Positions 4,105-63,475 of a stretch of DNA of 64,000 nucleotides are shown here, in pieces (positions within the stretch are counted from its first letter, which is position 1; each line of letters begins with the position of its first letter). Origin of the DNA: Escherichia phage vB_EcoM-pEB20. Location: sequence record OP114733. The stretch is one strand, 5' to 3'. Position numbers and translations under genes: made by a program. The notes beneath the pieces were generated by a model. That model was not told the origin of the DNA, searched no databases, and saw nothing but the letters and a program-made list of their open reading frames with translations.

Positions 4105-4552
4105 GAAAAATAAAGTGAAAGAACTATCAGCCGGTATTATTTTCCTTACCGAAGATAAAGAATTATTCATGGGGCGTGTAACTGGTTCTCGTCCTAAAGG
4201 TTCTTTAGCTCATCGGTGGGATATTCCTAAAGGACGTGTCGAGCCCGGTGAATCTCCTATTGAAGCCGCTATTCGCGAATGCGAAGAAGAAACTGGGTTT
4301 ACACAATATGACCCTGCCTTCCTGAAAGACCTAGGTGAACATCATTACTCAGACAATAAGAATATTCATCTGTTCCTATATACCATCCCTGTAGAGCACG
4401 AGCAATTCAGAAACAGTGTTTGTAATTCCTATCATACATTCCCAGACGGACGACAGATTCCTGAATTTGATGCATTCGCTTTAATTAAACCTTCTCAATG
4501 GGAATATGTAATGGGCAAATCATTATATAGGGTGCTCACTACCCTCCTATAA
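4094..4552 (+). CDS. nudE: Nudix hydrolase (T4 e.1/NudE-like)
   Basis: Nudix box GRVEPGESPIEAAIRECEEETG; sits immediately upstream of lysozyme as in T4. Confidence 0.85.
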   Translation: MMSKKNKVKELSAGIIFLTEDKELFMGRVTGSRPKGSLAHRWDIPKGRVEPGESPIEAAIRECEEETGFTQYDPAFLKDLGEHHYSDNKNIHLFLYTIPVEHEQFRNSVCNSYHTFPDGRQIPEFDAFALIKPSQWEYVMGKSLYRVLTTLL

Positions 4553-4553
4553 G

Positions 4554-4562
4554 TAATAAATA
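4554..4562 (+). promoter_or_regulatory. candidate late promoter (TAATAAATA, one mismatch to T4 late TATAAATA)
   Basis: Sequence at 4554-4562 just upstream of hairpin and e start codon. Confidence 0.4.
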
Positions 4563-4584
4563 CCTCCTATAAACATGGGAGGTA
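4561..4584 (+). promoter_or_regulatory. RBS-sequestering hairpin of lysozyme gene
   Basis: TACCTCC 4561-4567 pairs with GGAGGTA 4578-4584, which contains the SD GGGAGG. Confidence 0.55.
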
Positions 4585-4586
4585 TT

Positions 4587-5075
4587 ATGAATATATTTGA
4601 AATGCTTCGTAATGACGAAGGTCTTAGACTGACTTTATACAAAGACACTGAAGGCTTTTGGACGATTGGCATCGGCCATTTAGTAACAAAGAACCCGTCT
4701 TTAGCCGTAGCTAAAGCTGAACTTGACAGAATGATCGGTCGTAAATGCAACGGTACAATTACCCTTGATGAGGCTGAAAAGCTATTTAATGAAGACGTTG
4801 ATAAAGCCGTCCGCGGAATCTTGGGTAATGCTAAACTTAAACCGGTATATGATTCTTTAGATGCGGTTCGTCGATGCGCATTGGTTAATATGGTCTTCCA
4901 AATGGGTGTATCAGGCGTCGCCGGTTTTACTAATTCTCTTCGTATGCTTCAACAGAAACGTTGGGATGAAGCGGCAGTAAATCTAGCCCAATCTAAATGG
5001 TATCGTCAGACACCTAATCGTGCGAAACGCGTAATCTCAACATTTAAAACAGGAACTTGGAAAGCGTATATATGA
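4587..5075 (+). CDS. e: endolysin, T4 lysozyme (gp e)
   Basis: [31 protein letters not shown] nearly identical to T4 lysozyme as recalled; 162 aa. Confidence 0.95.
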
Positions 5076-5353: not shown

Positions 5354-5411
5354 TGTTTACTTCCTCCAAGGACTTTGATACTATACATTCATCAACTACT
5401 TGGAGGAAATT

Positions 5412-5825
5412 ATGACCCGTATCAATTTAACACTTGTTTCTGAACTGTCCGACCAACATCTTATGGCTGAGTATCGTGAATTACCACGCGTATTTGGTGC
5501 AGTCCGTAAACATGTTCAAAACGGTAAACGTGTAAAGGATTTTAAAATCTCTCCAACATTTATCTTAGGCACAGGTCACGTAACATTCTTTTACGACAAA
5601 CTCGAATTTTTACGTTTACGACAAATCGAGCTAATCGCTGAATGCTTGAAACGTGGTTTCAAAATCAAGGACACGACTGTCCAGGATATTTCCGACATCC
5701 CTGCCGAATTTCGTAATAATTATGTCCCGTCCGAAGCGTCCATTGCGATAAGTCAAGCACGCTTAGATGAAAAAATTGCTCAACGTCCGACTTGGTACAA
5801 ATACTATGGTAAATCAATTTACTAA
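5412..5825 (+). CDS. denV: endonuclease V, pyrimidine-dimer DNA glycosylase
   Basis: [24 protein letters not shown].. near-identical to T4 EndoV as recalled. Confidence 0.9.
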
Positions 5826-6093: not shown

Positions 6094-6157
6094 ATTGTTT
6101 ACGCTTAAGTATTAATATGGTATAATTACTCTATCAAAACAAACAAGGAAACAAAAA

Positions 6158-6472
6158 ATGAAAACGTATAAAGAATTTATTGCAGAATCCGCCAACCAAC
6201 GCGTTGAAGGTGGTTATATTTGGATTGAACAAGTTGAGCCACCGAGCCGCACTTCTACAGGTAAATGGAAAATTACTGTTGACGGTCCTGGCGGTAAACG
6301 TAGGACTCTTAAAGAAATTAACGGGTACTATGAAGAAGCTCTTTCGGATGCAGGAACTTACATGATGCAAATCATGATTAAAAACCCTGAAAACCGTTTT
6401 GCAGCTAAAGTCTTCCGCCGTATTGGTAATAAACTTTATGATGCATACTCTAAAAACTTCCCTAAAGAATAA
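6158..6472 (+). CDS. internal-protein-like with CTS MKTYKEFIAE
   Basis: ORF track; CTS-like N-terminus. Confidence 0.65.
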   Translation: MKTYKEFIAESANQRVEGGYIWIEQVEPPSRTSTGKWKITVDGPGGKRRTLKEINGYYEEALSDAGTYMMQIMIKNPENRFAAKVFRRIGNKLYDAYSKNFPKE

Positions 6473-8912: not shown

Positions 8913-8960
8913 GTTTACTTCTCCTCTAGTTGTGTTACTATAGACCTGTCAACTAGAGGA
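8913..8960 (+). promoter_or_regulatory. early promoter within 11-bp perfect inverted repeat (PeSL-like); right arm carries SD
   Basis: GTTTAC 8913-8918; arms TCCTCTAGTTG 8922-8932 and CAACTAGAGGA 8950-8960. Confidence 0.6.
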
Positions 8961-8969
8961 GAAATCAAA

Positions 8970-9428
8970 ATGACTATCAATTCAGACGTTTTTATCCGCC
9001 GTAATAAACTCCGTCGAATCTTTGAAACGGAGTTCCGCAAAATAAATGCCGGTATAAAAGATGCTGCAAAGTCTCTTGGACTACCAGGCTTTCATATCAA
9101 GTATTCTCAACATCTCTTAGATCGTGCCATCCAGAGAGAAATAGATGAGAATTACGTTTTTGAATTATTTCATAAAGTAAAAAATCACGTTAAAGAAGTT
9201 GCAGAATTTTTGTCAATGCCGGCACGTCCAGATGTTGATGAAGATTTTGTCGAAGGTGTCGAGTATCGTCCAGGCCGTTTAGAAATAACTGACGGAAATC
9301 TTTGGTTAGGACTTACAGTTTGTCGCGAAAATCCGGCATTCAAAATGAAGACTCTTCAATGCAGAATGGCTATTATTAACAGTAAACGACTACCAGGAAA
9401 AGCTTCTAAAGCAGTGATTAAAATCTAG
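8970..9428 (+). CDS. regB: RegB endoribonuclease (cleaves GGAG in early mRNAs)
   Basis: MTINSDVFIRRNKLRR..YSQHLLDRAIQREIDE..RLPGKASKAVIK resembles T4 RegB as recalled; 152 aa; synteny. Confidence 0.7.
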   Translation: MTINSDVFIRRNKLRRIFETEFRKINAGIKDAAKSLGLPGFHIKYSQHLLDRAIQREIDENYVFELFHKVKNHVKEVAEFLSMPARPDVDEDFVEGVEYRPGRLEITDGNLWLGLTVCRENPAFKMKTLQCRMAIINSKRLPGKASKAVIKI

Positions 9429-12565: not shown

Positions 12566-12616
12566 GTTTACTTCTCCTCAGGTTGTGTTATAGTAGTCCT
12601 TACTTACTAGAGGAGA
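12566..12616 (+). promoter_or_regulatory. early promoter in inverted repeat (PeSL-like)
   Basis: GTTTAC 12566-12571; arms TCTCCTC/GAGGAGA. Confidence 0.5.
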
Positions 12617-12621
12617 ACGTT

Positions 12622-12801
12622 ATGACACGTAAAGAAAAGATTTCTAAGTTAATGTTTTTGATTGAAGAGTACGCTAATGCGGTATCTGATTGGGAAAATG
12701 CCCATGGTTGCGAAGATGGAGACATCGACATTAACAGAGCTATGAAAAAGATGGCCGAAGCCCACACCGAATTGCAAATGTATGTTAACGAGATTATGTG
12801 A
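12622..12801 (+). CDS. hypothetical protein
   Basis: M24 of ORF 12553 (upstream part of ORF lies in promoter). Confidence 0.5.
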   Translation: MTRKEKISKLMFLIEEYANAVSDWENAHGCEDGDIDINRAMKKMAEAHTELQMYVNEIM

Positions 12802-12808
12802 GGATATT

Positions 12809-13015
12809 ATGCTTTACGATTATACTGGAAAATCTGAAGACGGTGTACTTGAACTTTTACCTGAAAGCGCTGAAGATGATGATATGGTGGTGATGTTTTG
12901 TAAAAATGGTCCTGGGGATAAGGGATGGATTTATCTTCGCCAAGAAAATGACCTAATTGTTTTGGACCCTAAACAAGTTGAAGAACTTTATCAACATTTA
13001 AAACATAATCGGTAG
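12809..13015 (+). CDS. hypothetical acidic protein
   Basis: M10 of ORF 12782. Confidence 0.5.
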   Translation: MLYDYTGKSEDGVLELLPESAEDDDMVVMFCKNGPGDKGWIYLRQENDLIVLDPKQVEELYQHLKHNR

Positions 13016-13052
13016 TTTACATGCTAATAGGACTATGATATAGTAGTCCTAT
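13015..13052 (+). promoter_or_regulatory. early promoter in inverted repeat (PeSL-like)
   Basis: GTTTAC 13015-13020; AGGACTA/TAGTCCT arms. Confidence 0.5.
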
Positions 13053-13072
13053 CAAATCAATTGGAGAACAAA

Positions 13073-13183
13073 ATGAAACTTTTGCTTATCGCTTATGTTG
13101 TAGTACAATACAATTATCCGATGTTTACTTATAACATGGTAAACGGCATAGTGAATCTTATTGAAACGAGTATGGTAAAATGA
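13073..13183 (+). CDS. possible 36-aa hydrophobic peptide (below ORF-track cutoff)
   Basis: ATG after GGAGAAC RBS of cassette; MKLLLIAYVVVQYNYPMF... Confidence 0.3.
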   Translation: MKLLLIAYVVVQYNYPMFTYNMVNGIVNLIETSMVK

Positions 13184-15633: not shown

Positions 15634-15726
15634 GGGGGTTAAAATATTTTTAAAAAGTGGTGTACATGCTTTTAGGATATGTTATTATAGACCTATCGAA
15701 ACGAAATGAGTAAATTGGAGAATAAA

Positions 15727-16707
15727 ATGTTCAACGTTCAAATCAAAAAAGGTATCTATCGTAATAACGAAATCTCTGGTTCTTATGTTGCCACAAAGAC
15801 CTGGTTCCCGGCAAAGCTTAATCCTGAATGTTCCCACTTAGGTGATGGTAAAATTTTCGTTATGATTGATGGTTCTGAACGTGGAGTATGGGTCTTCAAA
15901 TCAGACATCGTAATGGAAGGAGTTGAGACGTCACCGGTTGCAGTTGTTGAAAGCACTGAAGATATGAAAACTCGTATCAACAAACGCTTTAAAGTAATGA
16001 ACATGATGACGAATGGTATTATCGATGGCAAAATTCGTTCACTCATTATTTCAGGTGCAGCCGGTATCGGTAAGACGTATTCTCTGGATAAAGCACTTAA
16101 TAGTGCTAATGATAACGGTTTCATCAAATACAAAAGCATTAATGGTAAAATCTCTGGTATTGGCCTTTACGAACAACTTTGGCTCAACCGTGATGCAGAC
16201 AGCGTTCTCTTAATCGACGACGTTGATGTATTCTCAGATATGGATATCTTGAACCTTCTTAAAGCAGCATTAGATACCGGTGATAAACGCAAAGTTTGTT
16301 GGAGCACTGCGTCATCTTATCTTGATGATAAGGGTATTGATAAAGAATTTGAGTTTGAAGGTACTATCGTTTTCATTACAAACGTTGATATTGATAAAGA
16401 GTTAGAACGCGGTTCGAAACTTGCTCCGCACCTTCAAGCTTTAGTATCTCGTTCAGTGTATCTCGACCTTGGAGTACACTCTAATGAAGAGATTATGGTT
16501 CGAGTTGAAGATGTAATATTATCTACTGACATGATGCAGAAACGTGGCTTGACTGATGCTGAAACGTACAAAGCATTGTCCTGGATGAAGGCTAACGTAT
16601 CTCGTCTTCGCAATGTATCATTACGTACGGCTCTTTATGTAGCAGATTTTATTTCAACTGATAAAGATGGTTGGGAGGAAATCTCTGAAGTAACTTTACT
16701 GAAATAA
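15727..16707 (+). CDS. AAA+/P-loop ATPase (Walker A GAAGIGKT, Walker B LLIDDVD)
   Basis: M8 of ORF 15706 after GGAGAAT RBS; Walker motifs. Confidence 0.6.
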   Translation: MFNVQIKKGIYRNNEISGSYVATKTWFPAKLNPECSHLGDGKIFVMIDGSERGVWVFKSDIVMEGVETSPVAVVESTEDMKTRINKRFKVMNMMTNGIIDGKIRSLIISGAAGIGKTYSLDKALNSANDNGFIKYKSINGKISGIGLYEQLWLNRDADSVLLIDDVDVFSDMDILNLLKAALDTGDKRKVCWSTASSYLDDKGIDKEFEFEGTIVFITNVDIDKELERGSKLAPHLQALVSRSVYLDLGVHSNEEIMVRVEDVILSTDMMQKRGLTDAETYKALSWMKANVSRLRNVSLRTALYVADFISTDKDGWEEISEVTLLK

Positions 16708-17135: not shown

Positions 17136-17170
17136 GTTTACAAGGTCTATGGTTATGTTATTATAGACCT
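17136..17170 (+). promoter_or_regulatory. early promoter in inverted repeat (PeSL-like)
   Basis: GTTTAC 17136-17141; AGGTCTAT/ATAGACCT arms. Confidence 0.5.
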
Positions 17171-17191
17171 ATCAACTACTGGAGGTAAAAC

Positions 17192-17719
17192 ATGAACGCT
17201 AAAGATATTTTCAACCTGGTAAATTATAACGACGGTAAATTTAAATCTGAAGCACAAAGCAAGTTCTTTAATGACGTTGCTTATGGTAACGAGATTACCG
17301 TGGACGGAGGTCAGATTTTCAAATCTCGCTGGAATTGGATTGTTATCATCGATTCAGTTGGAATTGTGGAAGTCTACAAAAACACTAACAAAAAACGTAC
17401 ATTATTCTGGTCTCGTGAAACTAACGAGCAGTACAAAAAGGATAAAGCATCTCGTTTATCCAAAGTAACCCAGGAAGATATCGAGTTTATCAAGAAAGAT
17501 ATCGAGATGTACGAAAATTTAATCGCTGAAGACCAGGCAGTACTCGATAAGTTTGATGAAATTAAAGCTTCTCGTGAAATCCCTGACTTCATGAAAGAAT
17601 CAGTAAACGAACGATACGCTCTCACTTCAGAACGTATTGCAAACTATACAAAACAGAAAGCAGAACGTATTAGTACTCTTCGGAAATTTGAAGAACGTTT
17701 AAAGACGGTTCACGCATAA
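17192..17719 (+). CDS. hypothetical protein
   Basis: ORF track. Confidence 0.55.
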   Translation: MNAKDIFNLVNYNDGKFKSEAQSKFFNDVAYGNEITVDGGQIFKSRWNWIVIIDSVGIVEVYKNTNKKRTLFWSRETNEQYKKDKASRLSKVTQEDIEFIKKDIEMYENLIAEDQAVLDKFDEIKASREIPDFMKESVNERYALTSERIANYTKQKAERISTLRKFEERLKTVHA

Positions 17720-17781: not shown

Positions 17782-18777
17782 ATGAGCATTACATCTGATG
17801 CGGTAAAACATGAAATTAACGGTTTATGTGCTTCACAGATTAAAGTGTGGTTTAAAGACCATAATGATCGCAGAGCACTTAATTATGAACAAATTGCTAT
17901 CCAAGTTCATCAATTACTGGTTAGTAAATTTGATTTTCATATGCCGTCTGAAATCTATACTAATCTGCCGCGAGCACTTATTAAAGCGTGTAAAGGTTAT
18001 GGAAAATCAATGGCTGATGGAATCTTCAGCGCGCTGAATAAACTTAACGTTCTGTCGATGATTAACTCTAACAACATCCTTCGTAATCTAGGACGTACTG
18101 ATTTGTTCGGTCGTGAACAGGGTAAAATGCCTTTGAAATGGATTGTTGCTCATCTTAACGAGAACCAAACACGTTTTATGGCCGTAACAGCACGCTTACA
18201 AATGGGCCTAGATCGTCAGATGAACTTTAAAACTCATCCACGTTATTCAGGTTCAACTGACTTTTATAAATGTGAGCTTCAAAAGGTTGCAGGTAAAACT
18301 GTCTTAGTAGTTCGTGTAACGTTTGAAGGACGACGTCAAGGATATTTTGACATAATCGGCTCCGGGCTTAAACATTGTGGATTTATCGACGAAGTTGATA
18401 TCAAGCGAGACGGCATTGGATACCGTATTGGATATGTTTGTACTCTTAAAGAAGAGATTTCAGGACCAGCACCAGGACTAAAAGACGTTAGATATAAAGA
18501 CGAGCTCATTGAAGAAATAAAAGAAGTTGAATATGATATCAACCAAGAAGATGCTCTTAAAGACCTTATTGACGAACTAAACCAAGACTTTATTCCGGTT
18601 CAGAAATTTGAATCAAAACATGCTGAGCAAATCAAATACTTTGAAGCTTTGATTAACGAACTTAATGTAACTATTCAACAGACCGACGATGAAATCTCAC
18701 GATTAGCAGGCTTAAATGGTAAAAATAAAACAGAACGAGCTAATCTTATTCAAGTAGTAAAACTTCTTAAGGAATGA
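17782..18777 (+). CDS. hypothetical protein with C-terminal coiled coil
   Basis: ORF track; own promoter. Confidence 0.55.
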   Translation: MSITSDAVKHEINGLCASQIKVWFKDHNDRRALNYEQIAIQVHQLLVSKFDFHMPSEIYTNLPRALIKACKGYGKSMADGIFSALNKLNVLSMINSNNILRNLGRTDLFGREQGKMPLKWIVAHLNENQTRFMAVTARLQMGLDRQMNFKTHPRYSGSTDFYKCELQKVAGKTVLVVRVTFEGRRQGYFDIIGSGLKHCGFIDEVDIKRDGIGYRIGYVCTLKEEISGPAPGLKDVRYKDELIEEIKEVEYDINQEDALKDLIDELNQDFIPVQKFESKHAEQIKYFEALINELNVTIQQTDDEISRLAGLNGKNKTERANLIQVVKLLKE

Positions 18778-18832
18778 TGTACAACCAAGGAAGGTTGGAG
18801 TATAATAAATTTTTCAACATGAGGAATATAAA

Positions 18833-19768
18833 ATGGCTTCTATTACACGTAGAGAACTTATCAAAGAATTTACCTCGAACGCATATACCCCAGGACCTAA
18901 TCCTATCCGTATGCCTGTAAAGACTCCTGAAGAGATTGAGGAAATCTGTTCATATTATGGGATTAATTCTCGTAAGTTTACTCAATTTGAATGCGTTACT
19001 AACACACCCGTTAAAGAGTTCATTAAAAATGGTGAGTTCAGCCGTTTATTAGCCAAACAGAAACTTCGTAATTTTTGTATCGGCGGTTACGGACAATATT
19101 TCGCTAAGCAGTTCCGGAATAACCTTAACAATCTGATGGCCATTGCTTCTCGTATTCGTCCTCAAGCAATTAACATGAAACATTTGAAATATACTTACGA
19201 TAAGTTGGAAATCATGGTTATCAGTGAGAATGAGTTCACTCTCACGTATAAACCTAAGAATGATAACGTTGCTCGTGTATTCCACCAAGCGTTGGAAGTG
19301 TTAGGTGATAATATTCACCAGATTAAAGCAATTTATTCTCGTGAGCTTAATATTATCAACCCTATCAAGAATAAGGGCCATATCGCTATCCAGGCTCGTG
19401 TATCTATTGGTAAAAAGGTTCCTGCGCCATGGTGGCACAAAGACTCTGAATACTATCAAAATCTTAAAAAGGAAAATGCAACGTTCGAAGCGTCAATTAC
19501 TGCAACACCAATTGGCCATGCTGAAGTTCTAGGTGCATATTCTACTGCTCCATCTATACACATTTCACCGTCGACTAAACTGGAAATCTCTAACGGTCTT
19601 CTTCCTGCCGAAGATTACCATTATAATCAAATCAAGGCCACTGTAGACCAACTATCCGTTGAACTTGACAAAGCACAAGCTAAGCTTCGTGATGCTCAAC
19701 AAGTAGTTACCAAGCTCCAGTTGCAGTACTCTAAACTTTTTAACGCAATGAATGCGTTAAAATCATAA
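18833..19768 (+). CDS. hypothetical protein with C-terminal coiled coil
   Basis: ORF track; own promoter. Confidence 0.55.
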   Translation: MASITRRELIKEFTSNAYTPGPNPIRMPVKTPEEIEEICSYYGINSRKFTQFECVTNTPVKEFIKNGEFSRLLAKQKLRNFCIGGYGQYFAKQFRNNLNNLMAIASRIRPQAINMKHLKYTYDKLEIMVISENEFTLTYKPKNDNVARVFHQALEVLGDNIHQIKAIYSRELNIINPIKNKGHIAIQARVSIGKKVPAPWWHKDSEYYQNLKKENATFEASITATPIGHAEVLGAYSTAPSIHISPSTKLEISNGLLPAEDYHYNQIKATVDQLSVELDKAQAKLRDAQQVVTKLQLQYSKLFNAMNALKS

Positions 19769-19772
19769 ATCA

Positions 19773-19802
19773 GTTTACAACCAAGGATGGTTGGAGTATA
19801 AT
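19773..19802 (+). promoter_or_regulatory. early promoter with spacer hairpin CAACCA-AGGA-TGGTTG
   Basis: GTTTAC 19773-19778; 6-bp stem in spacer; TATAAT 19797-19802. Confidence 0.55.
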
Positions 19803-19830
19803 GAATTTATCTTAACGAGAGGAAAATATT

Positions 19831-20781
19831 ATGACACGTTCACATTACATTGAATACTTTGCAGGTCTTATCGCTAACGTTCATGCCCAACGTGCTTCTG
19901 GTGCACTAGGATTTGATGTTCCACACCGAGATGTAGTAAGTGGTATTCTTCGCGATTTTGGTACATACACAGGCCAAGAAAATCATATCTGTAAAGATAC
20001 TCAGAATGCGTATTCTCATTCATTAGGGACGCTGCTTCAATGGTTCAAACGTTCTCGTTTATTATCTTCTACTGTAGCTCGCGATAACATTAAAAACTTT
20101 ATGAAACCGAGCTTTATTAAATCTGTGACATCTAAAACTGATTTGGTTGAATTCACTATTGTTAATGATGTTAAAAAGACTCATTTGGCTGATTGGTTAT
20201 CTACCATTCCTGAAACTAAATTTGCTGATAAATTTGCTTGTGAATTCAATAAACAAGTGAATATGCTTTTTAAACATTCTCGTAAATTATTCACTGGCGG
20301 TGATGGCCGTACAAATAAAGTTCATGTTAAAGATTGGGTTACTGCAGTATTCAAACCAACTGGTAATGGTAACGCATCATTATCAATTGATATCCAGGTT
20401 CCTTATTACTACTCACGTAATCTCGGTACCATGAAAGCCGAAGAAATTAATAAGCACAACAAAACTATTCGTTCGTTGTCTTATAAACTTATTACATTGT
20501 TAGAGACTATGGATGTTGTTGAAACGTTCGACGAATCCGAAGATAACGGTTCAATGTTATATAGTTCTCGTACCCGAATTAAGTTGAAGAACCCTAACGA
20601 GTATAAACTTAAGACTATTAAAGAACCTAAAGTAGAAAAGGTTGATATCATGGCTGAAGAACGTGAATATCTCAAATCTCGTCTGAAAGAAGTCGAAGCC
20701 CAGATTGCAGAACAAACTAAATCGTTAAAAGCTCTGAATGCGAAAGCGGATGGTTTACGAAATGCCATTGAGGTGTTATAA
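19831..20781 (+). CDS. hypothetical protein with C-terminal coiled coil
   Basis: ORF track. Confidence 0.55.
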   Translation: MTRSHYIEYFAGLIANVHAQRASGALGFDVPHRDVVSGILRDFGTYTGQENHICKDTQNAYSHSLGTLLQWFKRSRLLSSTVARDNIKNFMKPSFIKSVTSKTDLVEFTIVNDVKKTHLADWLSTIPETKFADKFACEFNKQVNMLFKHSRKLFTGGDGRTNKVHVKDWVTAVFKPTGNGNASLSIDIQVPYYYSRNLGTMKAEEINKHNKTIRSLSYKLITLLETMDVVETFDESEDNGSMLYSSRTRIKLKNPNEYKLKTIKEPKVEKVDIMAEEREYLKSRLKEVEAQIAEQTKSLKALNAKADGLRNAIEVL

Positions 20782-26616: not shown

Positions 26617-26757
26617 CTCATTTCTAATATAATCCATTGGAATCTTCACTTCACTATCTCCTTGTGCCCCTCTCAAATCAAAAATATTTCATAAAACCAG
26701 TTTACATCCTCGATAGATATGTTAAGATTAACACCATCTACTATAGAGGAAAATAAA

Positions 26758-27006
26758 ATGATTAGTTTAGATTCAAAGAAAGTTGTTCTAACCCTTAAAG
26801 TTAATGACGAGCGTCTGGTATTCGTTACCATTTCCGATTTGCATGTTGAAATTGCTAATGGCGTTCGTACTTATCAAGCAAATAAAACTCATTGGGATTA
26901 TATCCCAATGTTGACGCTTACTCAGCGTTTAGAATCAATCGGTCTTAAAGACCTTTCAGTAAGTGAAGTGAATTTTATCAAACGCGTTGTATCAATCAAC
27001 CTCTGA
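26758..27006 (+). CDS. hypothetical protein
   Basis: M14 of ORF 26719 after AGAGGAAAATAAA. Confidence 0.5.
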   Translation: MISLDSKKVVLTLKVNDERLVFVTISDLHVEIANGVRTYQANKTHWDYIPMLTLTQRLESIGLKDLSVSEVNFIKRVVSINL

Positions 27007-28838: not shown

Positions 28839-28910
28839 TATCTCGTGCTTTAAGATAGGTCTCTAAATATTATGATATAATAGACCTATGAATTGAGCCA
28901 AGAGGTACTT

Positions 28911-37018: not shown

Positions 37019-37038
37019 AATGGGACTTCGGTCCCATT
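37019..37038 (+). promoter_or_regulatory. 8-bp stem / UUCG-loop hairpin between regA and gene 43 (terminator or part of gp43 operator)
   Basis: AATGGGAC-TTCG-GTCCCATT, no U-run; 59 nt upstream of gp43 ATG. Confidence 0.4.
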
Positions 37039-37096
37039 TGGAGTATAATAAGTTCATCAACAAACAAAAGACAATAACTCGTCTAAAGGAAATTAA

Positions 37097-49458: not shown

Positions 49459-49521
49459 CGGGGTTTACATCTTCCTCTAGGCATGATATGATGAACTTAC
49501 ACCAACCAAGAGGAAAACATT

Positions 49522-49896
49522 ATGAATATGTCTCAAGCAATTTTTACTGCAATCACCGAAAACACAACTGTTGAAGTAGTTTCTCCGCTGGCAACCTACG
49601 TTATTCTTGCTCCTAAAACTATTGTATCTCGTATGGAAAACATGGGCAAACGTATCGTACAAATTGTTGGAGCCGGAAATCAAAAACTTGATTATCTGCG
49701 AACCATCAAAGCTTATGAACATTTCCAACTCGAAAAAGGTTCTCCTATCCAGGTAGAACTCGTAAATGGTGATATCGTTCGAGCAATGTTCCATCATTTC
49801 TATGCATTGAATGACCCATCTAAAGCAGTTCGTTTAATTGCATACGACGCAAACCAAAACGAAATCAACGCGGATATATCTAAATTACGTTTTTAA
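49522..49896 (+). CDS. hypothetical protein
   Basis: ORF track. Confidence 0.55.
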   Translation: MNMSQAIFTAITENTTVEVVSPLATYVILAPKTIVSRMENMGKRIVQIVGAGNQKLDYLRTIKAYEHFQLEKGSPIQVELVNGDIVRAMFHHFYALNDPSKAVRLIAYDANQNEINADISKLRF

Positions 49897-49945
49897 GTTT
49901 ACTTCTCCAGTAGTTGTGTTATTATAGACCTATCAACTACTGGAG
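49897..49945 (+). promoter_or_regulatory. early promoter in 12-bp perfect inverted repeat (PeSL-like)
   Basis: GTTTAC 49897-49902; arms CTCCAGTAGTTG 49905-49916 and CAACTACTGGAG 49934-49945. Confidence 0.6.
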
Positions 49946-49951
49946 AACAAA

Positions 49952-50269
49952 ATGAAAACCATCGATTGTAAAGCAGAATTTAAGATTTTTTATCACGGTT
50001 CAAGTAGTTCAGCTAACATCGAAAACATGCTTTGTCCTCCTGAAGAAACAGGAGTTCTGTCTGAAACTGGACGTAAGAAAAACTTGGATCGTGTATTCTT
50101 TACTGAAGATATCGGTTTAGCAAAGATTTATGCAGGACGAGCAGCCCGCTCTTATGGAGGTGAACCACGTCTCTATCGAGTAATTTCTCCGGTAGATGTA
50201 GTTCAAATGAATGATACTAAAGGCGCTACAGTTTATCACGCTGAATGGGCCTTCTGTGAGGAAATATGA
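49952..50269 (+). CDS. hypothetical protein
   Basis: ORF track. Confidence 0.55.
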   Translation: MKTIDCKAEFKIFYHGSSSSANIENMLCPPEETGVLSETGRKKNLDRVFFTEDIGLAKIYAGRAARSYGGEPRLYRVISPVDVVQMNDTKGATVYHAEWAFCEEI

Positions 50270-50454: not shown

Positions 50455-50525
50455 TTTTAAAATAACTGTTTACAAGCCCCACATACTGTGTTACTATCTT
50501 TCTATCAACTACAGAGGAAATTGAA

Positions 50526-50894
50526 ATGAAAAAATTAATCGCTTTAGCAATGGTATTTGGATTAACCGGATGTGGTGCCCATGGCTTTATCCCTAATAAC
50601 GTTGGCCAACTGATTTACAATCCGAATGTTAAACAGTACGACCACCCTAAAGTTGAAGTGGAAGACCCGGTTACTGTAGGTAATCGAATGATTCAAGCTG
50701 ATGCCCATGCTCAACGTTATCGTGACTCTGATACTGTAGCATTGTCAAAAGAACAACGCGTTAAAGAACATTGCTTACAGGCTACTGAAATCGCATTCAT
50801 TCGCTATGTTGAAACAACTGGTAAAGAGCCTACCCAGAAACAAATCGCGAATAACTACGTACAGTGTATTGAACGTTTAAACAAATTTAATTAA
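50526..50894 (+). CDS. predicted lipoprotein
   Basis: Signal peptide with lipobox LTGC. Confidence 0.55.
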   Translation: MKKLIALAMVFGLTGCGAHGFIPNNVGQLIYNPNVKQYDHPKVEVEDPVTVGNRMIQADAHAQRYRDSDTVALSKEQRVKEHCLQATEIAFIRYVETTGKEPTQKQIANNYVQCIERLNKFN

Positions 50895-50955
50895 TTGGTT
50901 TACACCAAAGTTAAAATAAGATACTATAAACATAACAAATCAAGAGGAAATTAAC

Positions 50956-51204
50956 ATGGAATTATTCGTAGCTAGTTCAGTAGCAGTTTTAATCGCAGGT
51001 ATTGGTTCAATCATCATTTACATGTTGCCTTGGGTAATCGCACTTATTCGTGGTACAAAAAGCACAACAGCAATCTTCTTTGTATCTTTACTCTTTAACT
51101 GGACGATGATTGGTTGGATTGGAACTTTAATTTGGTCTATCGTTGCCGAAAAGAAATCTGCTCAGCAGCCTCAACAAGTAATTATTATTCGCGAAAAAGA
51201 ATAA
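50956..51204 (+). CDS. superinfection-immunity-family small membrane protein
   Basis: MLPWVIALIRGTKSTTAIFFVSLLFNWTMIGWIGTLIWSIV resembles Imm_superinfect family pattern. Confidence 0.55.
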   Translation: MELFVASSVAVLIAGIGSIIIYMLPWVIALIRGTKSTTAIFFVSLLFNWTMIGWIGTLIWSIVAEKKSAQQPQQVIIIREKE

Positions 51205-51208: not shown

Positions 51209-51243
51209 GTTTACATTATAGATGGACTATAGTATAGTAGTCC
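51209..51243 (+). promoter_or_regulatory. early promoter in inverted repeat (PeSL-like)
   Basis: GTTTAC 51209-51214; GGACTA/TAGTCC arms. Confidence 0.5.
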
Positions 51244-51267
51244 TATCAAATCAACTAAGGAGTTAAA

Positions 51268-51561
51268 ATGAAAAAGTTATCATTGGCAGCAATCTTACTT
51301 GCAGTATCATGTGCACCAGCTCCAGTTACGGCAGGTTATGATAAAGACCTCTGTGAGTGGTCAATGACTGCAAATCAAGAAGATGTTGAACAACAAATCT
51401 TCTCTGATATCATGAACATCACTAAAAGAGACCGTCCTAATATGGTTAATAAAGTTGTTGAACAACTTAAGTCTGGCGGTATCATGCAGTACAACTATGT
51501 TTTGTATTGTGACCCTAATTTCGATAACAAAGATATCGTAACCGAAATCACAGGTGAATAA
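51268..51561 (+). CDS. sp: spackle periplasmic protein (inhibitor of gp5 lysozyme)
   Basis: Signal peptide; GYDKDLCEWSMTA and MQYNYVLYCD resemble T4 Sp as recalled; 97 aa. Confidence 0.8.
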   Translation: MKKLSLAAILLAVSCAPAPVTAGYDKDLCEWSMTANQEDVEQQIFSDIMNITKRDRPNMVNKVVEQLKSGGIMQYNYVLYCDPNFDNKDIVTEITGE

Positions 51562-55056: not shown

Positions 55057-55086
55057 AAGGAATCCTTCGGGATTCCTTTTTTTTTT
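55057..55086 (+). terminator. rho-independent terminator (UUCG tetraloop, long U-run)
   Basis: AAGGAATCC-TTCG-GGATTCCTT then run of T. Confidence 0.8.
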
Positions 55087-55153
55087 GTTTCTACAGTTTA
55101 CAACCACTAAAAACTGTGTTAAGATATTCTTACTTACTCAAGAGGAGAACAAT

Positions 55154-55381
55154 ATGTTAAATCGTTGGATTAAACCTAATAACACATTAGGTGCTTTGAT
55201 TGCTCAAGAAGTTTCGTTGAAATACGGTCTTGGATATTACGATGATGTAGTCGTACACTCATTCATGATGGATGTTGAAGACGTCAAATTTAATGCCGAA
55301 ATCCGCTGGGATGATGGTGGTGTTCGTTTTGTTCGAGGAACAATTAATGCTTACGATACTGAAGAAGTTGTTTGCTGTTAA
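55154..55381 (+). CDS. hypothetical protein
   Basis: M24 of ORF 55085 after AGAGGAGAAC. Confidence 0.5.
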   Translation: MLNRWIKPNNTLGALIAQEVSLKYGLGYYDDVVVHSFMMDVEDVKFNAEIRWDDGGVRFVRGTINAYDTEEVVCC

Positions 55382-56416: not shown

Positions 56417-56577
56417 AAGAGAAATTGAAAGAGAAATTCTTACTAGAAATCAAGGAAAAAGACTTTGAGACATGGTATCGAATGGTGAAAGGGTTGACAT
56501 TGCTTTTTAAAGCATCTTTATTCATGTTAGAACAACCTGGTCCTGATGGACCTTTAGTAGGAAAGCTTAAAAAGTAG
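56413..56577 (+). CDS. 54-aa ORF (below cutoff) with tandem 12-nt repeat at 5' end
   Basis: ATGA overlap with upstream stop; stop codon overlaps next -35. Confidence 0.35.
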   Translation: MKEKLKEKFLLEIKEKDFETWYRMVKGLTLLFKASLFMLEQPGPDGPLVGKLKK

Positions 56578-56632
56578 TTTACATTCCCTCCTCTCGTGTT
56601 ATGATAGGCTTATCTTTAAATGGAGGTCTATC

Positions 56633-57214
56633 ATGACATGTCAATCTGAACTTCAAGAACGTGAATACCTAACAAATCTGATTGATAGCAAATTCACCCG
56701 CCAAGAACAAAACATTCTCTGGGCTTGCACCGATTCTAAGGAAGACCCGGATTTCCACTATGAATTAGACCATCTTGTTCGTAAGCATATGACTTCTACA
56801 GTACCAGTAGAACTCTACCGTGGTGTAACTCCAGAAGAAGTAGAACGTCTTTCACTTCTTTCTGTTGGATGCCATTGGTCTCCTGGACGAGTAACATCGT
56901 TCACAACTGATTTCAGTACAGCTCGTCAATTCTCCGGGAGATGGGAATACCAGACGTACACTATTCTTAGTCTCAGGAATGCTCCATTCATTTTTGATTA
57001 CTACCAAAACATGGTTAACATTGTACTCGCCGGAAAGAACCCTAAGCATGTTATGGAAGAAACGCGTGTTGATGTCCTAGATATGATTGAATCTGAACAA
57101 GAGTACATGGTCTCAGGTATCTCTAGATTTGAGATTGTGGAAATTGAAGACTTAGAATATGACCCTTTATCTCGATTATACAAAATCATTCATTTGAAAA
57201 TGTTGAATTTTTAG
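56633..57214 (+). CDS. mono-ADP-ribosyltransferase, ModA/ModB family (first paralog)
   Basis: R-S-E triad: LYRGV, FTTDFST, SEQEYMVSG; about 193 aa. Confidence 0.7.
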   Translation: MTCQSELQEREYLTNLIDSKFTRQEQNILWACTDSKEDPDFHYELDHLVRKHMTSTVPVELYRGVTPEEVERLSLLSVGCHWSPGRVTSFTTDFSTARQFSGRWEYQTYTILSLRNAPFIFDYYQNMVNIVLAGKNPKHVMEETRVDVLDMIESEQEYMVSGISRFEIVEIEDLEYDPLSRLYKIIHLKMLNF

Positions 57215-57271
57215 TGTACAAACTCTTCCGATGATGATACTATACCTTTATCAACCACAGGAGAAACCTAA

Positions 57272-57880
57272 ATGTTTATGCCGTATAACGAGTGTGAAAT
57301 TGAAGAAATGGTTCGTCGTGCTCAAAACCCCGAATATCAAGATGTATTGCAGTACGAAATTGATAGTCAATTCAGCGACATTGAACAAAGTGTACTGTGG
57401 CAGTGTATGGAAAACAAGCCAGACTGTATTCAACAGGAGTTAAGTTCAATCGTTCGTAGAAATTGGACGTCTTCTGTTCCTGAGACAATGTATCGTGGAA
57501 TCTCTAAGAAAACTATGGCCGCACTCGATGATAAAGGCGTTGGTAGTATTATTAAATTTGACAGAGTAATGAGCTTCAGCCCAGTGTTCGGTGTAGCACG
57601 TAACTTTGCTTCGTATAATTTTTACGGAACATTTAATATGTTCTGCATCAAAGATGCACCATTTGCTTTCAACTTCCGTGAACATATGCTTAACATGATT
57701 CTGGCTGCGCCATCTTGTGAGTTCAATGGAGCTTTCCCTGAAGCGACAAGACGGTCTAATGCTAGACTTATATCCGACGAATGTGAATTTATGCTCCCTA
57801 TAGGGACTACACTGCGTGTAGATTCTATTATTCAAGATGGACATTATACAATCTGGAATCTGTCTATTGTCAGTTACTGA
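57272..57880 (+). CDS. mono-ADP-ribosyltransferase, ModA/ModB family (second paralog)
   Basis: MYRGI, SFSPVFG, DECEFMLP; about 202 aa. Confidence 0.7.
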   Translation: MFMPYNECEIEEMVRRAQNPEYQDVLQYEIDSQFSDIEQSVLWQCMENKPDCIQQELSSIVRRNWTSSVPETMYRGISKKTMAALDDKGVGSIIKFDRVMSFSPVFGVARNFASYNFYGTFNMFCIKDAPFAFNFREHMLNMILAAPSCEFNGAFPEATRRSNARLISDECEFMLPIGTTLRVDSIIQDGHYTIWNLSIVSY

Positions 57881-58033
57881 CTGAATTGGAATAACCGGAT
57901 GGAACTCAGAACCATTATAACACATAAAAAATTAAAGCATTTTACGAAAAAAGAGTGTACACTACCTGAGGGCATGATATTATAAGCTTATCAGCTAAAT
58001 GGCCTTAACGTCCGTAAGACAGAGGAAAATATT

Positions 58034-58780
58034 ATGTTATCAAATAATAAAATTAACAAAATCAATCGTCGTCTTGACCACACCAGAGCTTCTGCGAAGA
58101 GACGCTCTAAGGATTTTAACTTAGACTTTAATTACCTTAAAAACATTCTTGATCAAAAGGTCTGCGCTTACTCAGGTGAATCTTTTAATAACTCTGTTGA
58201 AGGTGAGAAATTATCCTTAGAACGTTTTAATAATGATATAGGCTACATTAAAGGTAATGTTATCCCAGTTAAGAAAAAATATAACACGGCTCGTTCTGAT
58301 TTAACACTAGAAGAACTTATTGAGAAACGTGACGCTGTTGCAAGACGTATTGCTAATCCTTCTGCCCGTAAAGTAGATAAACTTAATCTCGACGAGAAGA
58401 AATGGGCCCAAATTAAAAATGTTTATGGTACTATTTTAAAAATCCGAGCAAAACGTGAAAATCGTGTTAAGCATATGGCGAACATGATGAAAAATCAACC
58501 TTTATCTAACGAATCTAAACTTAGAATTGTTGCTTTGAAAGCACGCATTAATGGCTCACATCAAGCAGAAGGCCATGAACTTACTAAACTCAACGTTCTT
58601 CTTAAAGGCTCTGACTGGAAAACTAAAACTAAATTAACTGACGCTGAATCGCTTTTCGATACATATGATAAAGTTATCCAAGGTCTGCAACGTTTTGAAA
58701 AGATTGGTTTCATCGGTAAATTAAAATTGAAACGTGGCTTACCACTTAGCGCATCATTATTCCAACTGATTAAAGGTTAA
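58034..58780 (+). CDS. Srd-like protein (by synteny between mod genes and dda)
   Basis: 248 aa basic protein; position matches T4 srd. Confidence 0.45.
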   Translation: MLSNNKINKINRRLDHTRASAKRRSKDFNLDFNYLKNILDQKVCAYSGESFNNSVEGEKLSLERFNNDIGYIKGNVIPVKKKYNTARSDLTLEELIEKRDAVARRIANPSARKVDKLNLDEKKWAQIKNVYGTILKIRAKRENRVKHMANMMKNQPLSNESKLRIVALKARINGSHQAEGHELTKLNVLLKGSDWKTKTKLTDAESLFDTYDKVIQGLQRFEKIGFIGKLKLKRGLPLSASLFQLIKG

Positions 58781-61096: not shown

Positions 61097-61126
61097 GTTT
61101 ACAACCAAGGATGGTTGGAGTATAAT
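61097..61126 (+). promoter_or_regulatory. early promoter with spacer hairpin CAACCA-AGGA-TGGTTG
   Basis: GTTTAC 61097-61102; stem 61102-61107/61112-61117; TATAAT 61121-61126. Confidence 0.55.
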
Positions 61127-61157
61127 TTTTCTATCTTAACCAAACAGGAAAAACATT

Positions 61158-61652
61158 ATGAATATCAATACCATGGCCACTTACATCCTGAAAGACGAAA
61201 AACAAATCAACTGGTACAGTGCTTCAGTGCGAGCTTATGAAAAGTTTTGTGAAATTTTAGGTGCCACTCAAGGTAATAGTTTCACTATTGTTAACTTCAT
61301 CAAACAAGCTGAAGGCCCTTGGTTATTCTTAGAAATTAAAAATTCATACGGTACAATTTCTACTACCGCCCTTCCAAGCACCGACTTTGAACTGTTGATT
61401 GAAGAAGTAGAACCCGTTAAAGACCTCTGTATTGATATGGATATCGCTTGTATGTACGGTACTCTGATTAAGCCTATTGAGCCTACTGATTTGTTGTGTA
61501 AAGCTGTTTCAATTCGACGTCCGTTCGCAGGTCCAGTGAGTGGATGGGTAACTGATCAGTGGATTGAAGATGGTGTTGAACTTCTGAACGTTGTTCACGC
61601 AGGTGATTTTAGTGTAGTTCCACGTAGTGCTGTAGTTAATATCCTTAATTAA
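61158..61652 (+). CDS. paralog family B member 1 (C-terminal DQW[IV]EDG motif)
   Basis: C-terminus ...GWVTDQWIEDGVELLNVVHAGDFSVV. Confidence 0.55.
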   Translation: MNINTMATYILKDEKQINWYSASVRAYEKFCEILGATQGNSFTIVNFIKQAEGPWLFLEIKNSYGTISTTALPSTDFELLIEEVEPVKDLCIDMDIACMYGTLIKPIEPTDLLCKAVSIRRPFAGPVSGWVTDQWIEDGVELLNVVHAGDFSVVPRSAVVNILN

Positions 61653-61712
61653 TGTTGTACATCCAAGGATGGATGGAGTATAATGAATTCAACTTAAACA
61701 AAGAGAGAAATT

Positions 61713-62177
61713 ATGATTACTATTGGTGAAATTAAACGTGTATCGACAGTGTCTCGTTCTAAAGCTGCAGGAAAGCTGGTTGAAGTAGTAGGACTTCGTA
61801 CTAATGGCATGGGCCGTATTAAAGAAGTTAAAGTTCGAATCATTCCTAGTTCTGGAAAAACTGAAACTCAGTTCGCCTATGTAAGTCCTAAATTCTTGGA
61901 AACTCCTGTGAGCGCTCATTTTGCTTCAAGCGATATCGTTGAGCCTACTACACAGTTCAAATGGGCCTTGTGTAAAGGTGTTGAATTCCAGACTGATAAA
62001 GAATTTGACTTCATCGATGAATACGGTTATCCAAGCAAAACTGATACTATGTGTGGCTTCATTAGTGACCAATGGGTAGAAGATGGTAAAAAGCTATACA
62101 ATATTGTATTCTTAGGTGACTTCCGAGTTGTTGAAGAATCTGAAATCACTCGCTATGTGTCTCCTCGTAAAGCTTAA
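61713..62177 (+). CDS. paralog family B member 2
   Basis: ...GFISDQWVEDGKKLYNIVFLGDFRVV; homologous over full length to next ORF. Confidence 0.6.
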   Translation: MITIGEIKRVSTVSRSKAAGKLVEVVGLRTNGMGRIKEVKVRIIPSSGKTETQFAYVSPKFLETPVSAHFASSDIVEPTTQFKWALCKGVEFQTDKEFDFIDEYGYPSKTDTMCGFISDQWVEDGKKLYNIVFLGDFRVVEESEITRYVSPRKA

Positions 62178-62186
62178 GGAATTATT

Positions 62187-62606
62187 ATGAATATTGCAAA
62201 TCTCTCTATTGGTGATTATGTACATGTATCGGATGCTTCTCGCTCTAAAGTTGCTGGGAAGTTGGTTGAAGTTCTTTCTGTGAGTGATCCGGTTTTTGGA
62301 CGTAACGAAGTTAAAGTTCGTGACGCCGATGGTAACATTGGTTACGTTAAAAGCCAGTTCATTGAGCCAGAAGAACGTACGTTCAAATGGAAACTGTGCA
62401 GGTCTGTTTTAGTTGTAAAAGACCATGAATTTACTATTGCTGCTGCAACTGACGGGTCTCCATGGACAACGAATCAAGTTGCTGGTTTTATTTCGGACCA
62501 ATGGGTAGAAGATGGTGTTAAGCTTTATAACATCGTTTTCGCTGGACAGTTCATGGTAGTTCCTGAGTTCCAAATCAAAAAATATTGTCCAGCATCTTTT
62601 GCATAA
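62187..62606 (+). CDS. paralog family B member 3
   Basis: ...GFISDQWVEDGVKLYNIVFAGQFMVV. Confidence 0.6.
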   Translation: MNIANLSIGDYVHVSDASRSKVAGKLVEVLSVSDPVFGRNEVKVRDADGNIGYVKSQFIEPEERTFKWKLCRSVLVVKDHEFTIAAATDGSPWTTNQVAGFISDQWVEDGVKLYNIVFAGQFMVVPEFQIKKYCPASFA

Positions 62607-62610: not shown

Positions 62611-62660
62611 GTTTACTTCTCCTCTGGTTTTGATATTATAACCGTATCAACCAGAGGAGA
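62611..62660 (+). promoter_or_regulatory. early promoter in 12-bp perfect inverted repeat (PeSL-like)
   Basis: GTTTAC 62611-62616; arms TCTCCTCTGGTT and AACCAGAGGAGA. Confidence 0.6.
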
Positions 62661-62665
62661 ATAAT

Positions 62666-63190
62666 ATGTTAGTTTACCGCGTAGAACGTAGTTTTTGTAC
62701 TCAACGTGAATCATTACCCGGAATTGCTATCGAAGACGGTAAAGCCGTCAGAATTTGGGAAACCTCTTGGAATAAAGAACCTCGCTCGCCATACGGTTGG
62801 TCGGGCACCGACAACTCTGAAGAAACATGGGAGTTCCTTGATAAGCATGGAATACTCTCAGGTAACTTCTACCATCACGGCGACAACTATAATGTCCCTA
62901 ATCGTCCTACAGTAAATGAAGACAAACTCCTTGAACAAAATATCTTAAGATACTATAGAATTGAGCACACATTTGAATTGAACGAAGATTGGGCTCAAGG
63001 GTTCTATTTTGGATTTGAAAGTGTTGATGCGGTTTATGCATGGTTTGACGACCAGGTGGATGTTGAACTCTTGAAAGCTAAAGGATACTATATCGCGGTC
63101 TATGAAGCACCTGATTTCATCCTCGGAAGTTGTCAATTAATGTTTAGACGTTCATTGGCAGAACAAGTTGATTTTATTTTGCTAAAATGA
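62666..63190 (+). CDS. hypothetical protein
   Basis: ORF track. Confidence 0.55.
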   Translation: MLVYRVERSFCTQRESLPGIAIEDGKAVRIWETSWNKEPRSPYGWSGTDNSEETWEFLDKHGILSGNFYHHGDNYNVPNRPTVNEDKLLEQNILRYYRIEHTFELNEDWAQGFYFGFESVDAVYAWFDDQVDVELLKAKGYYIAVYEAPDFILGSCQLMFRRSLAEQVDFILLK

Positions 63191-63247
63191 TGTACAATAA
63201 CTATAGTCTATGATACTATAAACCTATCAAAACAAGAGGAGAATATT

Positions 63248-63475
63248 ATGAAACGTCAAATCATTAAAAACGTAACTACTGATTCAAACATCGATGAGTT
63301 TGAAGATGTTCTGTTTAATCCTGATTTAGTTGTTGTACAGAAAAGCTGGACTGAATTTTTATGCTACACTGAAGTGGTTTACGTTTACGAAAAACTCGGT
63401 GACGAAATGCCTATCTATGGCATCTTCCGTGAAATCACTGAAAACGGTACAACTTATTGGAAGGAAACTTACTAA
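63248..63475 (+). CDS. hypothetical acidic protein
   Basis: ORF track. Confidence 0.5.

Follow-up and report, generated by a model that had tools for sequence, protein, structure and literature searches.

The closest described relatives of the elements considered here are the PeSLs of phages RB49 and phi1, in which an early promoter (Pe) is combined with a stem-loop in one of five positions, and which have been interpreted as sites of termination and of recombination (Arbiol et al. 2010, PMC2839356). We have analysed a 64,000-nucleotide (nt) stretch of Escherichia phage vB_EcoM-pEB20 (sequence record OP114733; hereafter the window, whose numbering is used throughout), in which the intergenic cassette preceding the gene regB (positions 8913-8969) and its relatives had been designated PeSL-like in an initial annotation. 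The PeSL concept has been extended to PST/T4 (Comeau et al. 2014, PMC4122927). The elements in the accessible part of that paper come from the same subfamily and resemble those of the window in their promoter consensus, TTTACW-N17-TAYWAT, and in their A/T-rich, variable stems. However, their stem-loops lie just upstream of the promoter and are treated as terminators or recombination sites, an arrangement that only four window cassettes have, by way of separate terminators, and base pairing that involves the SD (Shine-Dalgarno) goes unmentioned in that part of the text. Elements of the T-even internal-protein locus, which have T4 early promoters and weaker, A/T-rich stems, were called PeSL-like analogues by the PeSL authors (PMC2839356).

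Hairpins that govern translation are also known in T4. The initiation regions of e, soc, 49 and I-TevI lie in hairpins with an internal late promoter, and only the transcripts of that promoter are translatable (Uzan and Miller 2010, PMC3014915), an effect demonstrated experimentally for e and I-TevI (PMC3014915). The start of gene e (lysozyme) served as the positive control of our scan for SD sequestration; it was found in a 12-bp hairpin, ATACCTCCTATA / TGGGAGGTAT, that includes G.U pairs (window 4497-4590, hit at 4587) and follows late-promoter-like sequences. As for early promoters, 57 were predicted in RB69 (Nolan et al. 2006, PMC1524935), and T4 regB is said to have a typical one (PMC3014915), but the descriptions of early promoters in RB69 and T4 mention neither inverted repeats nor pairing of the ribosome site (PMC1524935; Hinton 2010, PMC2988021).

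The window comprises the early-gene region of a Mosigvirus (RB69/JS09-like), a T4-type phage. A 4-kb piece around the regB cassette had approximately 98.8% identity to many T4-like coliphages, with the RB69 group (JS09, APCEc01, JK42) at the top. By the JS09 annotation, the gene order runs from the homologue of RB69ORF139c through denV, regB, tk, the nrdC cluster, replication genes, dmd, imm and modA/B to the motB cluster, with nearly all genes on the + strand. The motif GTTTAC-N17/18-TAnnnT occurred 27 times where 1.7 copies were expected; 25 copies lay on the + (gene) strand. The strict TATAAT version was found 6 times against 0.1 expected. A direct-repeat search added three copies with a variant -35 (ATGTAC or TTGTAC replacing GTTTAC). 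The total was 26 intergenic cassettes, all on the + strand, close to the earlier estimate of about 25, and the nine positions that had been given as examples were all true cassettes with an inverted repeat. Two more copies, both perfect GTTTAC-N18-TATAAT motifs, were located within coding sequence (20753 and 27224); the copy at 27224 is probably a genuine intragenic early promoter, since its counterpart is conserved in T4, where it lies upstream of 55.4 at 41261.

Each cassette consisted of a GTTTAC-like -35, a spacer of 17-18 nt, a TAnnnT -10 that was often preceded by TG, a predicted leader of 20-25 nt, the SD and the ATG. The cassettes were about 57 nt long and filled the entire intergenic space, with a short conserved leader (AUCAAC...) and an A-rich UP region; in 17 of the 26 the upstream stop codon overlapped the -35 or ended 0-5 nt 5' of it. 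Early promoters of T4 and RB69 have the same GTTTAC -35, A-rich UP region and TGn-type extended -10, and are likewise C-rich from -3 to -1 (PMC1524935; PMC2988021). The cassettes preceded orthologues of early genes on the early strand, and the same motif was present at the orthologous T4 genes. As judged from these features they are σ70-dependent early promoters (the T4 Pe type) of an RB69-group phage. Thirteen were located in the first 1-27 kb, none between 27 and 49.4 kb, the 22-kb core replication block, and 13 between 49.4 and 64 kb, and together they constituted the largest direct-repeat families of the window (up to 10 copies, 60-85% identity over 53-69 nt). The designation PeSL-like was a fair one: as in RB49 and phi1, a σ70-type early promoter is associated (here in 17 of the 26 cassettes) with a stem-loop, an A/T-rich 5' region lies by the upstream stop codon, an SD and ATG are located at the 3' side, the elements are repeated in variable (hyperplastic) regions, and one crossover between cassettes was found in the comparison with JS09. 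The differences lie in the -35, which is TTGACA in RB49 and GTTTAC here, and in the stems, polyG/polyC in RB49 and A/T-rich, variable and not terminator-like here. The cassettes are a real, non-random and evolutionarily maintained feature, ordinary in kind. A search of the whole window against Rfam gave no match at the gathering score.

The regB cassette begins with the -35 hexamer GTTTAC (8913-8918), followed directly by the 5' arm TTCTCCTCTAGTTG (8919-8932), which lies in the promoter spacer and comprises an anti-SD and an anti-leader segment. TGT, the -10 hexamer TACTAT (8936-8941) and AGACCTGT separate it from the 3' arm CAACTAGAGGAGAA (8950-8963), after which come ATCAAA and the ATG at 8970. 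The transcription start predicted from σ70 geometry is at about 8948, downstream of the entire 5' arm. The 3' arm carries the SD, and its GGAG (8958-8961) is a RegB-type site. The two arms were perfectly complementary and formed a 14-bp stem of -21.6 kcal/mol (z = -4.9); none of 200 shuffles was as stable. The coding sequence (8970-9428) was confirmed as that of RegB (Pfam PF10715, E = 6e-69), and the element at 8913-8969 was exactly as originally described.

An inverted repeat was found in 17 of the 26 cassettes, in three layouts designated type B (8 cassettes), type A (5) and type C (4), and was lacking in the other 9. The initial annotation had the promoters flanked by inverted repeats, which was true of these 17 and not of the 9, and put the repeats at 7-12 bp, where the stems ranged from 5 to 14 bp. 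Its statement that the downstream arm usually contains the SD did not hold, as only 8 of the 26 cassettes, and four of its own nine examples, had the SD or AUG in that arm; on the whole the observation was partly confirmed, in that it holds but was overstated. [quoted passage not shown] Counted from the predicted start, the 5' arms occupied positions -30 to -17. The type B cassettes other than that of regB were those of denV (5355-5414, arms TTCCTCCAAG / CTTGGAGGAA, z = -5.2), of the homologue of RB69ORF040c (49897-49954, arms TTCTCCAGTAGTTG / CAACTACTGGAGAA, z = -5.5) and of motB.2 (62611-62668, arms TTCTCCTCTGGTT / AACCAGAGGAGAA, z = -7.4), a cassette at 26700-26760 (arms TCCTCGATAG / CTATAGAGGA, z = -3.0), and a variant at modB (56577-56640, z = -5.3), in which the -10 region (56595-56608) pairs with the region of the start codon (56627-56640). 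Two were weak, that of mobD.2a (12566-12624, arms TTCTCCTC / GAGGAGAA, z = -1.2), with a terminator immediately upstream, and that of the RB69ORF041c homologue (49463-49524, z = -1.6), with a terminator abutting the -35.

The type B layout falls outside the five published PeSL subclasses, with its -10 and start in a 17-24 nt loop and its SD paired; no RB49 stem that was inspected includes the SD. No description of an anti-SD in early-promoter spacers was found in the accessible literature; older papers on T4 promoters may contain one, and an earlier notice is likely because the arrangement is plainly visible in T4.

Several observations indicated that the stems did not arise by chance. When the spacers were shuffled, 12 of the 22 cassettes tested exceeded their own shuffles at p <= 0.022, and across 22 cassettes cognate arms paired better than non-cognate ones (permutation p = 1e-4). 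Dinucleotide shuffles of the whole cassette, applied to 20, gave z from -3.0 to -7.4 in eight, -2.8 in one more, -1.2 to -1.9 in six and approximately zero in the five repeat-less cassettes tested. It could be argued that the repeats have no function and represent chance complementarity or a by-product of the copying of one ancestral cassette, and indeed some copies are paralogous and have common arms (1034, 2329, 13015 and 51209). This is scarcely credible, as it is contradicted by the shuffle and permutation tests, by arms that differ and yet pair at orthologous promoters, and by covariation.

The clearest example was regB itself, for which 16 loci from IMG/VR were compared together with T4. 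The anti-SD/SD hairpin was retained across four lineages that differ in its inner sequence: the RB69 group has CTAGTTG/CAACTAG, T4 has CTTGACTG/CAGTTAAG, where two of the pairs are G.U, and the other two lineages have CTTTATG/CATAAAG and TGTAAG/CTTACA. In one lineage a G+C-rich type A stem was present instead, and the most distant lineage had no stem. Because alignment of the whole cassettes with MAFFT misaligned the arms at regB, the arms were extracted in register instead. A scan of IMG/VR with the 14-mer GTTTACTTCTCCTC returned mostly chance matches and only about 12 true cassettes; further arm variants were present in other IMG/VR contigs. The first 80 kb of T4 contained 24 cassettes, including five of type B and five of type A, among the latter the ipI and ipII promoters, with a sixth type A (trna.4) borderline. 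The denV and motB.2 cassettes are type B in T4 and in the window phage alike, with different arms. When 18 distinct type B arm pairs were set in register, pairing was found in 85% of cells compared with 69% in shuffles (0/500), a percentage that is inflated by preselection of the arm sets for pairing and to that extent counts against the interpretation offered below, while the compensatory pattern is unaffected. Both sides had changed in 10 of 14 pairs, and the covariation score was 0.437, compared with 0.147 in shuffles and 0.06-0.11 in controls in which the arms were slid. Compensatory change extended to the other types: one stem position of the type A cassette at 13015 is A-U, G.U or G-C in three close relatives, and in type C the stem CAACCA/TGGTTG is changed to CATCCA/TGGATG. 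By these results, the stems are under selection.

The non-Watson-Crick positions within the stems were G.U in 13 cases and A.C in 4, an excess that weakly favors a structure in the sense-strand RNA over a DNA cruciform. A role in the DNA, in which the inverted repeats influence promoter strength or early shut-off by cruciform extrusion or by binding a phage factor, has some appeal in that the 5' arm is located in the spacer in all three types, the -10 lies in the loop in type A, and the mechanism by which early promoters are shut off is unexplained (PMC3014915; PMC2988021). However, a G.U pair is an A.C mismatch on the other strand, the arm sequences vary freely between promoters, so that there can be no common protein site, and nine cassettes that look strong lack any repeat; we therefore consider a DNA-level role highly improbable.

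In about two thirds of the cassettes, then, the promoter spacer appears to have evolved complementarity to a segment downstream. The predicted start lies about 7 nt past the -10. For type B this puts it between the two arms, for type A within the 3' arm, and for type C beyond both arms on the downstream side. Because of this position relative to the arms, the hairpin would be formable only in sense RNA initiated upstream and never in the cassette's own transcript. Read-through RNA of this kind is normal in T4 prereplicative transcription (PMC2988021). In type B (regB, denV, mobD.2a, motB.2, modB and three open reading frames, ORFs), read-through RNA of the delayed-early or middle class would have its SD in a helix of 8-14 bp, or at modB the AUG rather than the SD, while the promoter-proximal immediate-early transcript would leave the SD free. 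The type B genes would consequently be translated mainly from their own short-lived early transcripts and be silent on the longer RNAs. Thermodynamic prediction was consistent with this difference: the probability that the SD is unpaired was 0.40 in the cassette's own transcript and 0.04 in the read-through RNA for type B, compared with 0.54 and 0.49, respectively, for cassettes without a hairpin. The GGAG on the longer RNAs would also be shielded from RegB. That RegB cleaves GGAG in SD sequences, as had been noted, agrees with published work, which adds that RNA structure blocks the cleavage (PMC3014915).

We therefore favor the view, to which we assign a probability of roughly 60%, that type B stems gate the SD according to the promoter from which the RNA originates, so that translation would proceed mainly from the early transcript of the cassette itself. 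Occlusion of the SD on read-through RNA had originally been proposed for the cassettes at large. It fits the geometry of the eight type B cassettes, with their predicted SD accessibility and covariation, but is inapplicable to the other 18 and is therefore not the general function of the cassette. The arrangement resembles that of e, soc, 49 and I-TevI in that the 5' strand of the helix that sequesters the SD or AUG lies upstream of an internal promoter. There, the promoter is the late promoter TATAAATA and translation is late only, whereas type B has an early σ70 promoter and is predicted to be translated only in the immediate-early period. Type B combines the PeSL layout with gating of the e/soc type.

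Several considerations weigh against this interpretation: 1) the transcription starts were placed by σ70 geometry only, 2) SD occlusion covers 8 of the 26 cassettes, and the nine of types A and C have selected stems that leave the SD free, 3) the two weak type B stems, at 12566 (z = -1.2) and 49463 (z = -1.6), each have a terminator upstream, so that little read-through may arrive there, 4) strongly sequestered SDs were found at 6 of 23 promoter-bearing genes compared with 5 of 55 others, a difference that is only suggestive (Fisher p = 0.07), 5) even in the transcript of the cassette itself the SD accessibility is predicted to be only about 0.4, and 6) in vivo, the stem base might be melted in part by ribosomes that terminate 0-5 nt upstream of the -35.

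A different account of the same hairpin is translational coupling: on polycistronic RNA the SD of a type B gene would stay closed unless a ribosome completing the upstream gene opened the stem base, where the anti-SD is paired with the SD, so that translation of the downstream gene would require that of the upstream one. The upstream stop codon overlaps the -35 or ends 0-4 nt before it in five of the eight type B cassettes, so that the anti-SD starts 5-10 nt after the stop, and the anti-SD:SD pairs are the outermost of the stem. A terminating ribosome covers about 9 nt past the stop codon. It would consequently reach no more than 1-3 nt of the arm at 5355 and 49897 and none of it at 8913 or 62611, and the stop is 29-108 nt distant at 12566, 26700 and 49463. 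With a geometry this marginal, and with types A and C left unexplained, we regard coupling as unlikely.

Types A and C have the two commonest layouts of RB49 PeSLs (PMC2839356) and are members of the published kind. The nine cassettes of these two types fit published subclasses, whereas the eight of type B fit none. Among the RB49 elements inspected, the type C layout was found upstream of ORFs 190, 205, 209 and 210 and the type A layout upstream of ORFs 192, 204, 226 and 227; the arrangement TTGACA-GGGGATC...GATCCCC-TATAAT corresponds to type C and GGGAGT-[-10]-ACTCCC to type A. In type A of the window, the stem measures 9-13 bp; the spacer holds its 5' arm, a 6-nt loop holds the -10, and the 3' arm extends over approximately -6 to +5, with the SD free, 10-15 nt beyond the stem. 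In type C, a mini-hairpin of 5-6 bp has both arms inside the spacer.

The five type A cassettes were located at 1034-1094 (arms GATAGGGCTAT / GTAGTCCTATC, with the -10 in the loop and the SD outside the stem; z = -3.1), 2329-2389 (z = -3.75), 13015-13075 (z = -2.8; the variable stem position mentioned above is A-U in the window, G.U in RB69 and G-C in JS09), 17136-17194 upstream of nrdC.8 (arms AGGTCTAT / ATAGACCT, z = -1.9), where the T4 orthologue is type B, and 51209-51270 upstream of sp (arms 51221-51230 and 51237-51247, z = -1.8). The type C cassettes were those of nrdC.5 (18777-18835, -35 ATGTAC, mini-hairpin CAACC / GGTTG), nrdC.3 (19773-19833, CAACCA-AGGA-TGGTTG), motB.1 (61097-61160, the same as the 19773 copy from the -35 through the -10) and motB (61655-61715, -35 TTGTAC), whose mini-hairpin CATCCA / TGGATG is the compensatory version of CAACCA / TGGTTG. 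For the type A and C stems it is selection that is shown, and any function is putative.

One proposal that would cover types A, B and C alike is that these intercistronic hairpins act on RNA stability or processing, either by guarding the upstream cistron from 3' exonucleases after cleavage by RegB or RNase E or by hiding GGAG from RegB, and so tune mRNA half-lives, with translation initiation not the target. The stems lie over GGAG-type SDs or 10-15 nt upstream of them, many early intergenic GGAGs are cut and secondary structure blocks RegB (PMC3014915), and the bias toward G.U is indicative of a role at the RNA level. However, type C stems of 5-6 bp are too weak to resist exonucleases, and nothing in the model requires that the 5' arm should lie, as it precisely does in each cassette with a stem, upstream of the start. 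We find this explanation doubtful. Gating of the SD in type B can be embedded in a broader scheme, in which the Tevenvirinae, T4 included, have a conserved subset of early promoters (regB, denV, motB.2, modB and others) whose spacers carry an anti-SD, so that translation would be open on their own RNA and closed, with resistance to RegB, on read-through RNA, while the type A and C stems, conserved to the same degree, would serve a second RNA function specific to read-through. We advance this scheme only tentatively.

The nine cassettes without an internal repeat were those at 146-237, which has a long leader, at 6097-6160 in the internal-protein locus, and upstream of nrdC.10 (15660-15729, -35 GTGTAC, with a terminator upstream), imm.1 (50468-50528), imm (50898-50958), mrh.2 (55096-55156, with a strong terminator at 55057-55088 just upstream), modA (57214-57274, -35 GTGTAC), srd (57955-58037, -35 GTGTAC) and cef (63190-63250, -35 ATGTAC). 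The srd leader, at about 45 nt, is longer than the usual 20-25 nt and structured, the stretch 57930-58060 having a predicted fold of -21.4 kcal/mol. At cef, a type A stem (GGTCTAT / ATAGACC) is intact in JS09 and RB69 and is disrupted in the window copy by two substitutions; it appears to be decaying in the window phage.

True terminators were found upstream of the -35 at 12566, 15660, 49463 and 55096, so that two of the nine stemless cassettes (15660 and 55096) have one just upstream. The idea that cassettes preceded by a terminator lack internal stems was not borne out cleanly, as two of these four are the weak type B cassettes at 12566 and 49463. The cassette hairpins themselves did not have the features of intrinsic terminators: no U-tract followed any of them, the 3' arms instead being followed by sequence of the AUCAAAAUG type, the stems were A/T-rich, and none was matched in the terminator scan. 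The earlier suggestion that the hairpin could terminate consequently has no canonical sequence support. The sole route that we see for the stems to terminate transcription is indirect, in that an untranslated cistron may become open to Rho-dependent polarity.

This bears on the classical interpretation of PeSLs, in which the stem-loops are attenuators or terminators of upstream transcription and the repeats of about 60 nt serve mainly as substrates for homologous recombination that shuffles small genes. In RB49, expression of a reporter downstream of a PeSL stem-loop was lowered as it would be by a strong terminator, and mini-circles were observed (PMC2839356). In the window, the cassettes make up the largest direct-repeat families, and all 26 lie in variable regions with none in the 22-kb core replication block. 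In JS09 (locus L001, 2077-2405) an extra ORF of 201 nt lies between two cassettes, where the window has a single cassette, the type A copy at 2329-2389, that is a chimera of the two. The junction, at 2335, falls within the -35 hexamer and is, by its structure, a textbook case of cassette-mediated gain or loss. Two more indels end at a cassette edge. One is a whole-ORF deletion relative to JS09 and RB69 (26747-26761) that extends exactly from the ATG of the type B cassette at 26700 to the ATG of the next gene, so that this cassette has come to drive the gene that follows; the other, at 50446, is likewise a whole-ORF deletion relative to both phages and ends 15 nt upstream of the -35 of the imm.1 cassette.

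Against this interpretation, the stems are neither followed by a U-tract nor GC-rich and went undetected in the terminator scan, and the true terminators are separate elements upstream of the -35. An association between indels and cassettes, which looked striking in the comparison with JS09 (4 of 9), did not rise above the baseline when RB69 was added: 5 of 13 indels touched a cassette, approximately the baseline for whole-gene indels, as about one intergenic region in four has a cassette. Recombination, which needs similarity between copies and not complementarity within a copy, also leaves the compensatory arm changes unexplained. The classical interpretation is compatible with SD gating; as the explanation of the stems it is possible, and we rate it well short of an even chance.

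Several neighboring features of the window are related to the cassettes. At 28846-28890, a TGCTT resembling a MotA box is followed by a TATAAT flanked by an 8-bp stem, ATAGGTCT / AGACCTAT, whose arms are those of the type A cassette at 17136. It lies upstream of a gene that starts at 28911 and for which full pairing of the SD is predicted, and may be a middle-promoter counterpart of the early cassettes (PmSL-like). At 37019-37062, TGGAGTATAAT, a -10 context shared with the type C cassettes, follows immediately on a G+C-rich terminator hairpin, AATGGGACTTCGGTCCCATTT; no GTTTAC -35 was found there. Three diverged direct repeats of about 68 nt in the motB-family genes (61554-62563) indicate tandem paralogues, each of which has its own cassette in front (61097, 61655 and 62611). 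The variable ip locus differs from that of JS09 by replacements, and the repeated gene starts ATGAAAAC(A/G)TAT...GAATTTAT at 5072, 5835, 6158 and 6498 are those of internal head proteins and correspond to their conserved N-terminal targeting sequence.

Gating of the SD in type B would be a modest extension of known biology. The type B subclass, about one third of the cassettes, supports the earlier idea of SD occlusion and may be worth experimental study in T4. Should its stems function in the predicted way, they would add a simple cis-acting layer to early gene control in T4-type phages and would account for the expression of a gene in a brief immediate-early pulse from within a long polycistronic unit. 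RegB would be an apt case, because its dosage is known to be tightly limited. The same stems would explain why some intergenic GGAG sites escape RegB, and they would constitute a systematic early-only counterpart to the late-only gating of e, soc and 49. For the annotation of T4-like genomes, the cassette grammar (stop, -35, 17-18 nt, -10, a leader of 20-25 nt, ATG) is an aid in assigning start codons and transcription units. Finally, PeSL-type cassettes would carry translational insulation with them when they move, and a promoter that is accompanied by a leader, an SD and its own insulator would be a self-contained expression module for newly acquired genes.

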